Source of the DNA: an uncultured virus (IMG/VR IMGVR_UViG_3300036719_002413) | Lineage: Duplodnaviria > Heunggongvirae > Uroviricota > Caudoviricetes | Virus record (IMG/VR): IMGVR_UViG_3300036719_002413 | Reading direction: 5' to 3' (one strand) | DNA length: 20,000 bases | Translations under genes and position numbers: made by a program | Notes under the pieces: model-generated | What the model saw: only the letters and a program-made list of their open reading frames with translations | What the model was told of the DNA's origin: nothing | The model's database searches: none | Shown here: positions 7,576-19,555 of the stretch, piece by piece | Numbering within the stretch: the stretch's first letter is position 1 | Layout of the letters: every line of letters begins with the position of its first letter

Positions 7576-9351
7576 CTAAATTTTTAATAATCTATCCCTA
7601 ACTTCCTTAAAGGTAGTTTGGTTATAGAATTTACCATTCTCATAGATTACTTGGAGTAAGCCTACTTCTTCTTGTTTAGGAGTACATTCTGTAAAAACTT
7701 TTATATCAGCATATTGATAATCTCCAGCCGAAGAAACATCTTGTACTTGTAATAACCCCTTCAAAGATTTCTTAGTACCATCATCAGTTACTGGATCTTT
7801 GTAGATGTTGTATGATTTTTTAACATTGTGAATATTTCCATCATCATCTGTCCAAGAATCTCCATTTTTAACTTCAAACCAAGCTCCTTTAGCAGCAAAT
7901 CCTAATGTATCTCTAGTAATGTATTGGTAAGTAAATGATCCTACACCTAATACAATGTTAGTAGAAGCAAAGCCTTTAGCAGCTAATCTCTCATATATTT
8001 GTCGTTGTCTATCAGGTGTAATACTATCACCATAGATTGCTCCAATATGAGGGTCTAATACTTTATAGCCCTGCTCATTAACAGTACCACCAAATATATC
8101 CCAAAGAAGTTCAATTACGCCTTTATCAGAAGGTTTCCAATCTAATTCTTCAACAGTAATTTTAGCTTCTTCATACATTTCTATAAAATAGTATTGTTTA
8201 TCATATCTATTCCATTGAATATTATGTATAGTAGCTTTATATAGCTTACCTCTTACTAAATAAATTTGTGTATATTCTGTTACTCCATATTCTCCGTGAG
8301 GTGTATTTTCTTTTACTTCTTCTAATAATGAATCTTTGAAATATTTAGGTAAAACATCTCCTTCTGGAAACCATTTAGTTAAGTCTTCATATTTAGTAGA
8401 AACACCACAAATAATATCAACAGGATCACCTGAATCAGGTCTAATTACTAATTTACCATCTCTAGCCATAATAGCTTCCTTGTTAGCTGGTAAATATTCA
8501 GTAATAAGTTTCCACAAATCAAATGTATCAGATACAATTGATAATATACCTTTAGGGAATAGTTTAATCCAATCAGCAATCATTTGATTCTCACCAACAG
8601 TAAATATCTTAGTAGTACTTACAGAGTGTTCTGATGCATTTACAGAATTAATAATAACTTCATCGTTAGGTTCATTATAGTAATATCTAGCAGCAGGTAT
8701 AGCTGCTAATGTATCACTACCTCTGAATGATGTAGCATGACCTAATCCTACACTTATCATATCATATGGACCACTCAATCCTCTAGCAGAGAAATCATGA
8801 CACATATAATCTACTAACCATAAGTTTTTAGGATCAGTCTTAGTTACCCACTCTTCAGCTTGTCTTCGATATAACTTAGCAATAGTAGCTGCTGTAGAAG
8901 CTTTCCATGCTAAATTAGATACCATAGTTTCCATATAAAGAGTTAACCAAGCAAATCCATCAACTGTATTAATGAAGGTCATATGAGGAATATTAGGATC
9001 AGTTTCAATACCTTCAGGTAATGCTTTTACTTTTAAAGGTAAGTAACCTAAATGATGAAGTTCTAAAAAATGTCTATCATTATATTCCATTCCAAGATAT
9101 TTATTCATATCCTCTCCAAATTTTAAAGCACCTGATAAATTGAGATTAAAGAAATGTTCTTCAAACACATCATGAATATATTTCCAAGCTAATTGCTGAC
9201 CAAATGATACTATCTTAGTAATACCTTTAGGTGCATGTTTGGTACTTCTTGGAATCCACGTACCATATAATCTAGTAGTTCCAGGAGCTAACATAGCTTT
9301 GTGACCTACTTTATAACCATCTGTTAAATATAATGGGTTAATTGTAAACAT
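7576..9351 (-). CDS. Nicotinamide phosphoribosyltransferase-family enzyme (Nampt/NadV, or NARP1 Namat)
   Basis: TDGYKVGH, HDFSARG, GSDT, ASEHSV, SIVSDTFD, VIRPDSGDP, IYGDSIT, GVGSFTYQ, TRDT, KDPVTDDGTKKS. Confidence 0.93.
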   Translation of the reverse strand: MFTINPLYLTDGYKVGHKAMLAPGTTRLYGTWIPRSTKHAPKGITKIVSFGQQLAWKYIHDVFEEHFFNLNLSGALKFGEDMNKYLGMEYNDRHFLELHHLGYLPLKVKALPEGIETDPNIPHMTFINTVDGFAWLTLYMETMVSNLAWKASTAATIAKLYRRQAEEWVTKTDPKNLWLVDYMCHDFSARGLSGPYDMISVGLGHATSFRGSDTLAAIPAARYYYNEPNDEVIINSVNASEHSVSTTKIFTVGENQMIADWIKLFPKGILSIVSDTFDLWKLITEYLPANKEAIMARDGKLVIRPDSGDPVDIICGVSTKYEDLTKWFPEGDVLPKYFKDSLLEEVKENTPHGEYGVTEYTQIYLVRGKLYKATIHNIQWNRYDKQYYFIEMYEEAKITVEELDWKPSDKGVIELLWDIFGGTVNEQGYKVLDPHIGAIYGDSITPDRQRQIYERLAAKGFASTNIVLGVGSFTYQYITRDTLGFAAKGAWFEVKNGDSWTDDDGNIHNVKKSYNIYKDPVTDDGTKKSLKGLLQVQDVSSAGDYQYADIKVFTECTPKQEEVGLLQVIYENGKFYNQTTFKEVRDRLLKI

Positions 9352-11232: not shown

Positions 11233-12147
11233 TTAGAATATATTTAATTGTTTAACTAAATCTGAATCATAATCATCACCTGGTTTAATATCTTTGTAAC
11301 TATTAGTACAGTAAATACCATTAAAATACTTTGAAAGAGTTTCAAATCCCTTAGAAAATATACCATGAGTTACTATGAGATAAATTTTAGATTTACATCC
11401 TCTATCTTTAAAAGCTTTAGTAATATTAATAAATGTTGCTCCCCCATCACAAATATCATCTATAATAATAATATCTTGTTTGTTTATTGAATCTTTTAAT
11501 AATCCAGGAATTTCAACTTTATTTAATTTACCTTGTTCATCACGAGATTTACTACAAGTAATAATTTCTCCTTTATAACCTATTTTTTCAGCTATTTTGT
11601 AGATTTTCTTACTTGCTCCAGCGTCAGGAGATACTAGAATATGTCGATGTTCTAATCTTTTTAAAGTAGAATAATTTCCATATAAAGAATCTAAAGCAAA
11701 AGTAACTAAACGTCCATTATTTTCCTTCTTAAAGTTATTTAAGCAAGCTTCTAATACATCAGAATGAGGATCTAATACAGTAACAGAATCAAATTCAAGA
11801 CTATTAATAATAGGACAGATAATATCTTTAAGATAATTATTACTACCACTTTCAAACTGTCTATCTGATCTAGCACCTAAAAAATATGGTGTATAAAGAT
11901 GAATTTCTTTAACACCTAAGTTTCTAAGTGATTTAGTAGCGCAGATAATGAGTTCAAGATCTGTAAAGGTATTTAAACGTGCTTTGATTTGAATAGAAAA
12001 TTTTGATATATGTCTATCTAAACTTTCATCAGTTTTTCCATCAAACCATATTCTATTAATAACAACCTGTTGTTGACCATCAGGGAATTTATCTACCCTG
12101 TATTTTATATCTGATTTCTCAGGATATGCTAAGTTTAGTGTTTTCAT
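11233..12147 (-). CDS. Ribose-phosphate pyrophosphokinase-family enzyme (Prs, or NARP1 Adps)
   Basis: FPDGQ, PYFLGARSDR, LDPHS, SPDAGA, KSRD, IIDDICDGGATF, VTHGIFS, TNS. Confidence 0.92.
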   Translation of the reverse strand: MKTLNLAYPEKSDIKYRVDKFPDGQQQVVINRIWFDGKTDESLDRHISKFSIQIKARLNTFTDLELIICATKSLRNLGVKEIHLYTPYFLGARSDRQFESGSNNYLKDIICPIINSLEFDSVTVLDPHSDVLEACLNNFKKENNGRLVTFALDSLYGNYSTLKRLEHRHILVSPDAGASKKIYKIAEKIGYKGEIITCSKSRDEQGKLNKVEIPGLLKDSINKQDIIIIDDICDGGATFINITKAFKDRGCKSKIYLIVTHGIFSKGFETLSKYFNGIYCTNSYKDIKPGDDYDSDLVKQLNIF

Positions 12148-17413: not shown

Positions 17414-18100
17414 GATTTTAAGGTTTTAATTGTTAATACCTCTCTATCACCACAATAGAGCCGCACAATGTTGATACATACATTGCAGACTAGCCCCAAT
17501 GTAAGAACAACTACTACAATCATATTACTATGATTGAGGCACAGGGACGATAAGGAATAAGTAATAAACCTTAAAGTTTATGCTGCCACCATCATTGTTA
17601 TTTAGGTTATTAATCAGCACAATAATTAAATTACTATCCGATATTCTTTCACAATGACTTTATATCTTCTACCTACTATTTGCTACAATATTTTTATGTA
17701 GTTGGTATAGAGTATTCTAACTGTTTTGTAATAGGTAAATTGTTTATGGTCACTTATACCACTAACTAAGTATGTAGGATTGAATACCTACTATGTTCAA
17801 TTAATTTTGTATCCTATTACAAAACAATTAGATATGAGAATGATATTTGTGTTGTTAGTGGTAATACATCTTAAACTACTGAAATCCATTTCTCTTTCTC
17901 AAGGAGAAACAACACAATTTGTAGTATAAATAACTTACGATTACCTTTAAACGTATTACCAATCTTGATAAGGATATAATTGGATTATTTATTACTACAA
18001 CTTTTTATGTGAATTATAAACCTGATATTTAGTGGTAGAGAACTACATAAATAGAATTCACAAAGGTAAATATCCAACCTATTTCTTTACTAATTAATTA

Positions 18101-18234
18101 CCCCTCTGCACTCAGTTGTAATACTTCAGGAGCTTCACCTGCCTTCTAGTATACTTGTACTTCTCAGTTAAGAGTCAGTACGAGCTTTCTTACTTTGTAG
18201 TACAACTGCTCACCCGAAGGTTAGTGCAAAAGGA
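18101..18234 (-). repeat. Structured repeat module, copy B
   Basis: Shares 22-nt ccctctgcactcagttgtaata (18102-18123 = 18667-18688) and tacaactgct(c/a)accc (18201-18215 vs 18764-18778) with copy A; internal CAGTTGTA/TACAACTG stem. Confidence 0.85.
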
Positions 18235-18278
18235 AATTAAGTTCAGGTTTGATGTGATCTCCCCTAAACTCAATGTTG

Positions 18279-18446
18279 TTAACACTCATTTGATTGATTT
18301 TCTAAACCATTAAGCTCACATTCGTTTTTTAAATCTTGTAAATCTTCAGCTTTTTTTAAAGCCCATTTTAAAATACTTACTAATTCATCAATATCTTTAC
18401 CATCTCTGTTTATAGTATAGATTATGTGCTCTTTTAATTTATCCAT
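18279..18446 (-). CDS. 55-aa small protein (not in ORF track)
   Basis: MDKLKEHIIYTINRDGKDIDELVSILKWALKKAEDLQDLKNECELNGLENQSNEC with AAAACAAAATG leader. Confidence 0.6.
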   Translation of the reverse strand: MDKLKEHIIYTINRDGKDIDELVSILKWALKKAEDLQDLKNECELNGLENQSNEC

Positions 18447-18666
18447 TTTGTTTTACATTTTTACAACTTACCAGTTATTTGTTATTTTACAACACACTTT
18501 AATATAGGTAGTGTTGATTACCTAATTTCAATAGTTTATTCTATTTTACCCCCCTACACTGGGAAGTAGAAATGGTGCATTACAGAGTTTATGATATTTC
18601 TATCAACCACCACTCTAAGGACTGATTCTAATGTTTATAGTCTAATAATCAGTTAAATTTGGACTT

Positions 18667-18945
18667 CCCTCTGCACTCAGTTGTAATATAGTTTTCACAA
18701 AACATGGCTTTACATATCACTATGATATGATGGTCTTCACCTCATGATGTTTGTCACTATTATTACAACTGCTAACCCTTGGGAGCTGATTAAGTAAGAC
18801 TTACGTTATTGCTAACTGCGAGTTAATCAGGTAGTTTCACATCTTAGGGGCATCTCTTCGACGGTTATTTTACATTTCCCTACAGAGGCATTACTGCTTG
18901 TTTTTTCTAAGAAGTCTTTATATCTACGTGAGTTGTGGTGCATTA
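18667..18945 (-). ncRNA. Twister-ribozyme-like RNA with large inserted helices (repeat copy A)
   Basis: Ordered elements UAA-UGCA-CC (18945-18937), UCCC-AA-GG (18784-18777) and UGCA-GA-GGG (18675-18667) mirror the twister L1/P2/T2/L4/T1 pattern. P1 is weak. Confidence 0.45.
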
Positions 18946-19198
18946 ATAGTAGAGTTTCACTTCGCTTTATATCTCTACTAAACCCCGCTTCTAGGGCTTA
19001 ATTAAGTTTCTGGTGTAGGTGGACGTTTTCATCTCCTAATTGACCAGATTAATAGGGATAGTTTTACCTATTTTCAACAGTTTGATTACTGTCATTGAGA
19101 TCCTAACTACCATTAGGATGTTTAACTCTCTGTTATACCCAACCGCTACAGTGCTTAAAGCCCTTAGTCTCGGTCGGGTGGTAGCTCATTTGTATTTA

Positions 19199-19555
19199 CT
19201 AATAACCAGCAGCTATTGCATCATTTATCATGTGCATTACTCTGTCTTTTATTTCTTTCTCAGTATATGGTTTATAACACTCTGAATTATTAATGTGAGA
19301 ACCATCCATACTGAAATTATAACCAAGCTTATCTTTTAAGAATTTAGCTGTTAATTCCCTAGCACCATACCCATCACCCGCTACTGCTTTACAAGGCTCA
19401 GTCATACTCTTTGATTTATTGAAATGCATATTGATATGACCTAGGAAACAACAGTTTCCCACCTTATCAACAAACTTATGAGCAATGAATTGCTCTTTAG
19501 GTATAGGCTCAATGATCTCTTTGATCTGAGTGAAATTAGTGATTTTGTAGCTCAT
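19199..19555 (-). CDS. Hypothetical phage protein
   Basis: MSYKITNFTQ...CCFLGH...; ATG at 19555 preferred because the track's upstream extension runs through a terminator hairpin. Confidence 0.75.
   Translation of the reverse strand: MSYKITNFTQIKEIIEPIPKEQFIAHKFVDKVGNCCFLGHINMHFNKSKSMTEPCKAVAGDGYGARELTAKFLKDKLGYNFSMDGSHINNSECYKPYTEKEIKDRVMHMINDAIAAGY

Follow-up and report, generated by a model that had tools for sequence, protein, structure and literature searches.

Theta (HDV-like) ribozymes next to phage tRNAs have been proposed to process polycistronic transcripts, and the PeSL cassettes of T4-type phages bring repeated conserved elements with modular shuffling among small early ORFs. For the twister ribozyme a consensus has been described, in which P1 is dispensable in vitro (PMC5408937, accessible part, reviewing Roth et al. 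2014). According to the accessible sections of PMC11662667, which name the Rfam model twister-P1 as RF03160, twister tolerates flaws in P1, P2 and P4, changes at position 1 of L4 and a variable P5; the two-pair pseudoknot T2, for which an 'NC' descriptor is given, is mismatch-sensitive.

Genomic setting and architecture of the element

The window (the whole stretch of 20,000 nt that was analysed) is phage DNA with leftward genes for DNA polymerase A, a NAPRTase-family protein (7576-9351, minus strand) and a PRPP-synthetase-like protein (11233-12147, minus strand), the latter two being a phage NAD salvage pair, together with tRNAs and a tmRNA. As judged from sequence comparison, positions 18945-18667 on the minus strand are a real feature, namely an enlarged type-P1 twister-like RNA of crAss-like phages. 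In a tblastn search, the DNA polymerase A matched crAss-like phages best, at about 30% identity, so that 'crAss-like' is a weak label for this phage. A blastn search with 18000-19200 against annotated phages gave no match, and a promoter and terminator scan gave signals not above shuffles.

The element sits in a gene-poor stretch of 2.6 kb, bounded by an ORF that ends at 19199 and by the tmRNA/tRNA cluster. In this cluster, the tmRNA (16172-15839, minus strand; Rfam E 4.7e-32) is directly followed by a tRNA (15836-15762, minus strand), which has an anticodon loop of 8 bases and for which ARAGORN gives no assignment. A tRNA-like stretch after tRNA-Arg (15229-15164, minus strand) has a T-loop-like hairpin at its end and is called by neither ARAGORN nor Rfam. 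A tRNA-Leu(UAA) (12998-12172, minus strand) is interrupted within its anticodon by an intron of group I (Rfam Intron_gpI, E 1.2e-9, under the gathering score), which harbours an HNH endonuclease ORF (12951-12283, minus strand; PHROG E 3.6e-44); the split tRNA is missed by ARAGORN, and the insertion point was read from the sequence.

The spacer around the element is a mosaic of modules that occur in different orders at other loci. The minus-strand modules at 18665-18584, 18546-18432, 18284-18243 and 17817-17732 are non-coding, lack an Rfam match and are also present in other phage loci in other arrangements, and a multi-hairpin region at 19185-18990 (minus strand) folds better than shuffles (z -3.47). 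Across 57 loci, the elements of the family share the strand of the genes and have small ORFs around them (ORF cover 0.42 in sense vs 0.08 in antisense, median length 84 aa), with a median distance of 100 nt to the next ORF. Only 7 of 82 family loci have tRNA genes within 1.5 kb, the nearest at about 0.5 kb, and tRNA processing of the theta type was rejected on this ground.

The preliminary description of this DNA had recognised the conserved twister order, and UAA, P2, L4 and GAGGG all lie on the minus strand where it had placed them. All coordinates of the element given here refer to this strand. The whole element (18667-18945) is an expanded, twister-type candidate ribozyme, 'form B', supported by comparison of 191 unique copies. 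It starts with the 5' strand of L1, UAA (18943-18945), and the scissile bond predicted there, U18945/A18944, is placed by analogy with twister (PMC5408937, accessible part). The 5' strand of P2, UGCAC (18938-18942), forms five pairs with GUGCA at 18676-18672, with UGCA 18942-18939 and UGCA 18675-18672 as the core. The 5' strand of P4 (18928-18932) pairs with 18776-18772, with one C.U mismatch in this copy and a possible sixth pair, C18785-G18777. The insert of 142 nt (18927-18786) precedes the L4-region strand UCCCAAGG (18784-18777). Within the L4 loop UCCCAAG (18778-18784), CCC pairs with GGG 18669-18667 to form T1, and G18778 pairs with C18937 to form T2. The P5 stem CAGUUGUAAUA/UAUUACAACUG (18771-18761/18688-18678) has a predicted pairing probability of 0.95 in this copy and carries variable arm 3, together spanning 18678-18771. 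The 3' strand of L1, GAGGG (18667-18671), contains G18671 as the general base predicted by twister analogy, and the 3' strand of P1, AAGU (18663-18666), can pair with 18950-18946 in a constrained fold with four pairs and one bulge. The conserved bases of L1 and L4, including the predicted acid A and base G, are all present.

As a single sequence, 18945-18667 folds no better than shuffles (z -0.47), and the support for the element is therefore comparative. The window contains a 16-mer from its 3' end two times, where 0.09 occurrences would be expected by chance, and an exact 22-nt repeat of the main element at 18102-18123 was the first lead.

Copies of the family and their covariation

Exact-motif scans of viral contigs with four different anchors gave at least about 120 matches each, some of them by chance (36 of 99 unique anchors in one check). 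The 16-mer from the 3' end was found in at least 121 viral-contig stretches, a few of them by chance. From 491 loci and the window, 364 anchors were obtained, of which 302 were complete and 62, cut or unclassified, were left out. After removal of duplicates, 191 unique complete copies were retained, including a few misparsed ones (L337, L483, L001, L181, L292): 138 are compact (form A) and 53 carry the insert (form B), in each case with the same two helices where P4 meets L4. Since the search anchors fix some columns, conservation is overstated in this set, and the intactness of bases A7, A8, G45 and A46 in 131 of 138 compact and 52 of 53 expanded complete copies is inflated by the way these were found. 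An unbiased view comes from 51 readable form B copies located by the insert alone: the AA and the P2 strand are present in 50, and the core is strictly intact in 30; adding seven copies that failed through parse slips gives about 37, which leaves about a quarter with core damage. A search of 185,579 species genomes with the 3' motif gave 9 matches, all in short or phage-sized MAG contigs.

A match to the Rfam twister models, which had been suggested as a check, was not obtained: with E values of up to 10 allowed, Rfam 15 gave none in the window or in one compact copy, nor did 12 loci match the twister models at E up to 5. No Rfam family of any other kind matched the element. This miss, which includes the compact form, is a catalogue gap and not a biochemical criterion. 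A literature search, with most subscription papers outside its reach, found no paper describing this family, and it is not described in the accessible parts of PMC10085705, PMC5737381, PMC10136315 and PMC4919913; some members may already stand in published twister alignments.

Comparison of the copies establishes the fold (P2, P4, P5, T1, a weak P1 and the two insert helices) and its strand. P2, P4, P5 and the insert helices covary. In an alignment of 28 of the 53 form B copies, including this one, 96.5% of the cells are paired, and 23 of 46 pairs are changed on both sides compared to 8.7 in shuffles (0/500 shuffles), a count uncorrected for kinship. Changes on both sides affect 7 of the 11 pairs of P5, in line with the P5-like arm proposed earlier, and 6 of the 8 pairs of insert helix B. 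Insert helix A is paired in 53/53 copies, one of its pairs being GC in 38 and AU in 15. Within the compact form, each of the five P4 pairs shows covariation. P1, a short AU-rich stem, has runs that average 2.98 and 2.83 pairs in the two forms, compared to 2.13 and 2.14 with shuffled partners (0/500 in either form). The weakness of P1 and P4 noted previously thus holds for P1 and, owing to the C.U mismatch 18930/18774, for P4 in this copy; across the family, P1 pairs above shuffled partners and P4 covaries. In the stems, G.U is seen in 41 cases vs A.C in 11, which favours an RNA on the minus strand.

The proposed T1 pairing of UCCC-AA with GA-GGG is present in this copy. Of the 138 compact copies, 9 have AU in place of CG at its middle pair, spread over four P4 backgrounds; of the 53 expanded copies, 0 do, so T1 covariation is confined to the compact form. 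Together with the G.U bias, it points to RNA, and a MITE-like DNA element was dropped accordingly. RNase P, a group I core, a hammerhead, a spliced intron in L4 and a CRISPR-repeat mimic were dropped as well, the element order being absent.

T2 is less straightforward. The numbering used here (nt13 = 18938, nt31 = 18777, nt40 = 18676) is taken to follow rice twister. The preliminary description had read a CC/GG T2 as a compensated pair, with covariation of both pseudoknots among homologues as its test. Position 18938 covaries with 18676: this fifth P2 pair (nt13-nt40) is CG in 171, UA in 16, UG in 3 and other in 1 of the 191 copies, A40 is found in 16 of the 19 U13 copies and in none of the 171 C13 copies, and UA occurs on at least nine P4 backgrounds. 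By contrast, nt31 follows nt13 in only 1 of 19 changes, and C13 is mismatched with it in 9 of 171 copies. This nt31 can pair with the base before UCCC, as the sixth P4 pair, in 136/138 compact and 49/53 expanded copies; in three cases both bases have changed to give U-A, and two of these cases are probably related. The CC/GG combination is a compensation relative to canonical twister and not within the family. The C18937-G18778 pair is C-G in 184/191 copies, near-invariant and without a double change, leaving covariation for T1 only. On the other side, G31 is strongly conserved, U13.G31 is a valid wobble, a five-pair P2 and a two-pair T2 score alike on a 40-copy alignment (97.8% and 97.7% paired), and both T2 pairs are able to form in this copy. 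In T2, then, the C-G pair is sure and the other pair is contested. A two-pair T2 is possible, and the two T2/P2 registers may both be used during folding.

Searches for members with a changed T2 did not yield any. No other base at G31 on the commonest P4 was found in viral contigs; directed scans gave at least 119 matches in one case and 20 in the other, and in none of those listed was P4 accompanied by P5 or by the 3' end; a search with model R1 in 100 of 139 loci gave none; and a metagenome scan for a changed T2 G returned 2 matches, one unrelated and one a cut copy without a recognisable 5' strand. The suggestion of an undescribed twister subclass stands as far as a subfamily unseen by Rfam is concerned; the CC/GG T2 is no new subclass feature in itself, since it fits the 'NC' descriptor in the accessible part of PMC11662667.

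Insert, variable arms and condition of this copy

The structured insert of about 140 nt that had been noticed is a conserved domain with covarying helices. It takes the place of a single U between P4 and L4 and consists of two helices that would make a four-way junction. Insert helix A (18831-18927) comprises GUAG/CUAC (18927-24/18834-31), a conserved internal loop and UCUUAG/CUAAGA (18912-07/18847-42), both pairings as first read; the variable arm 1 occupies about 18906-18848 within it. Helix B of the insert, CUGAUUAA/UUAAUCAG (18830-23/18793-86), together with variable arm 2 spans 18786-18830. The insert presumably opens the top of P4 into the junction outside the active site.

In 44 copies found with anchors outside the insert, the unpaired bases of the internal loop are near invariant, the strands matching AUAURAAGACU in 37 and UGURAAA in 42, with UAA (31/44) or UGA (8/44) opposite GAAA. 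The UAA/GAN and UGA/gAN internal-loop motifs are docking motifs according to the accessible part of PMC2615604; the insert loop matches their sequence signature, with UAA or UGA facing GAAA and an adjacent G.U in its short versions, and differs in extra 5'-strand bases in the common version. The longest version fits the UAA/GAN signature only with extra bulged bases. The motif also stands alone in a hairpin, of which the family loci contain four distinct versions whose stem pairs have changed, one of them at 18980-18947 in the window; it is absent from 139 control loci. We infer that the loop acts as a tertiary docking strut of the UAA/GAN type and not as a ligand sensor.

The near-invariant loop bases could alternatively reflect a conditional ribozyme, in which a ligand, a protein or a tRNA at the internal loop, or release of a competitor in arm 1, turns cleavage on. 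P2 folds less readily in expanded than in compact copies (median probability 0.54 vs 0.97), and the two registers at 18938/18777/18676 could represent off and on states. However, the loop also exists as a stand-alone hairpin and is deleted in one locus (L052) that keeps the junction, an internal competitor matching 8/8 is found in only 5/52 expanded copies, and tRNA genes are rarely nearby, as given above. The tRNA-elbow double T-loop requires AG..A and UG..A on facing strands (PMC3664808, accessible part); the insert loop has UG..A and no AG..A, and this motif was rejected. Conditional control is therefore considered very improbable.

Several features suggest that this copy would cleave poorly. 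Of the 46 copies that have the insert and a P4 strand of 5 nt, the other 45 lack the C.U mismatch that weakens its P4, and its arm 1 holds an 8/8 complement of the catalytic 3' strand. Predictions that leave pseudoknots uncounted put its nested twister fold 10.4 kcal/mol higher than the predicted minimum, and the P2 probability of 0.016 is the eighth lowest of 52 (medians 0.54 for form B, 0.97 for form A). The upstream hairpin (18947-18980), a stand-alone copy of the internal-loop motif that is common to L100, L170, L226, L058 and L023, overlaps the 5' strand of P1 and competes for it in a P0-like manner; P0 hairpins lowered cleavage in the accessible part of PMC11662667. A collapsed remnant at 18549-18582 (minus strand; model hit E 0.0013), in which the 5' half of a compact copy is fused to a damaged 3' end, is found here and in the near-identical locus L347 only. 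These flaws, the neighbouring remnant and non-catalytic relative, and the frequency of damaged copies in the family would fit a true twister family of which this particular copy is decaying and non-cutting. Yet every core base and T1 are intact, the same sequence is present in two near-identical loci (L217 and L347), and fold predictions omit pseudoknots and tertiary contacts. Decay is thus quite improbable, and the models point to a copy that is probably a slow or partial cutter.

The 296 arms fall into 236 clusters, 186 of them singletons and 14 spanning different slots or forms. They are weakly structured (median z -0.5 to -1.0 vs shuffles), no 9-mer is shared by more than 7 arms, and no Rfam family matched any arm in the loci scanned. 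Words resembling the tRNA T-loop are seen in several arms (L117, L018, L054, L067). The module at 19043-19014, free in the window as a piece of the multi-hairpin region, is arm 2 in two other loci (L216 and L052). The three arms appear to be tolerated insertion sites, reshuffled by recombination between conserved frames.

A relative without UAA and L4, 'form C', lies at 18096-18238 (minus strand; model hit E 2.6e-8, fold z -3.65) and shares the 22-nt exact repeat with the main element. It has an 11-pair closing stem and a UUCG hairpin replacing P4/L4, and it keeps P2, a P4-like hairpin and the same P5 stem, with another arm. About 17 of the 25 matches listed are form C copies, in a graded series from copies keeping AA to fully paired stems. 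In one other locus (L091, 26-83), a weak pistol match (25.4 bits, gathering score 34.5) lies about 150 bases upstream of a compact twister. For the element, pistol was dropped because the element order is absent, and it was dropped for the upstream module too, no conserved pistol frame being present.

A P2/P4/P5 junction and an arm retained in form C without catalytic loops, with stem changes on both sides, and the exchange of arms between slots, forms and free modules raise the question of whether the family serves to display its arms: a stable scaffold would present interchangeable arms of 30-170 nt as decoys or aptamers against host proteins, with cleavage as one way to set the 5' end. The base of P5 is also far more conserved in sequence than P4. 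Against this, the arms fold barely above shuffles and lack widely shared 9-mers and, in the loci scanned, Rfam matches, the P5 loops of twister vary strongly and have no consensus (PMC11662667, accessible part), the P5 conservation comes partly from the search anchors, and repeat recombination would also give common frames. Display as the main role is deemed unlikely. A related proposal combines both functions: the twister would carry a natural library of RNA arms and release itself as their chassis, its cut freeing a nuclease-resistant scaffold with a 5'-OH; this is rather unlikely too. Such a chassis would display one arm (compact) or three interchangeable arms (expanded) that target host defence or regulatory proteins as decoys or aptamers; recombination would exchange hundreds of arm types, and the scaffold would persist even where catalysis is lost.

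Proposed function and comparison with known systems

The explanation that we consider likely is a phage-encoded type-P1 twister whose cis cut, at U^A 18945/18944, would punctuate the leftward transcript. By twister chemistry, A18944 would act as the acid and G18671 as the base, giving a 2',3'-cyclic phosphate upstream and a heavily folded RNA with a 5'-OH downstream. The cut may separate the small genes and structured RNA modules that a polycistronic transcript contains, and, given what is generally known of 5'-end-dependent decay, may shield the downstream piece from it. The L4 loop, which equals the rice loop at 7 of 8 bases (rice loop as in the accessible part of PMC11662667), argues for a twister. 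Arguing against are T2, which is flaw-sensitive in that source, does not covary and has a second pair that rivals the fifth P2 pair, the confinement of T1 covariation to the compact form, and the quarter or so of insert-anchored copies with core damage.

The family can thus be regarded as the twister class in a new variant that is large, widespread, phage-borne and outside Rfam, with self-cleavage predicted from sequence comparison. It widens the known twister architecture by a natural insertion at P4/L4 with a predicted four-way junction and by a possible exchange of the P2/T2 register, and the insertion point may serve as a site for engineered switches. As compact, expanded, non-catalytic and decayed forms are found side by side, the family offers a direct handle on the role of self-cleaving RNAs and variable arms in DNA phages; the role of P3/P5 is called unclear in the accessible part of PMC11662667.

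Compared to theta ribozymes, the family shares the proposed processing of phage transcripts by a self-cleaving RNA, but it has another fold and no tRNA adjacency. It resembles the PeSL cassettes in being repeated among small ORFs; its repeat, however, is a pseudoknotted RNA with a catalytic signature, present in a single copy in each of the four complete records that carry it (113-127 kb) and in two copies within 3 kb in 11/57 loci. The closest system is twister type P1 with auxiliary P5 and P0, with which it has in common the order and identity of L1 and L4, P1/P2/P4, T1, the C-G pair of T2, termini in P1 and a variable P5. It differs from this type in being Rfam-negative and without P3, and in having a five-pair P2, a contested second T2 pair, a P4 of 5-6 pairs, the 142-nt two-helix insertion at P4/L4 and a fixed P5 base that bears a long arm.
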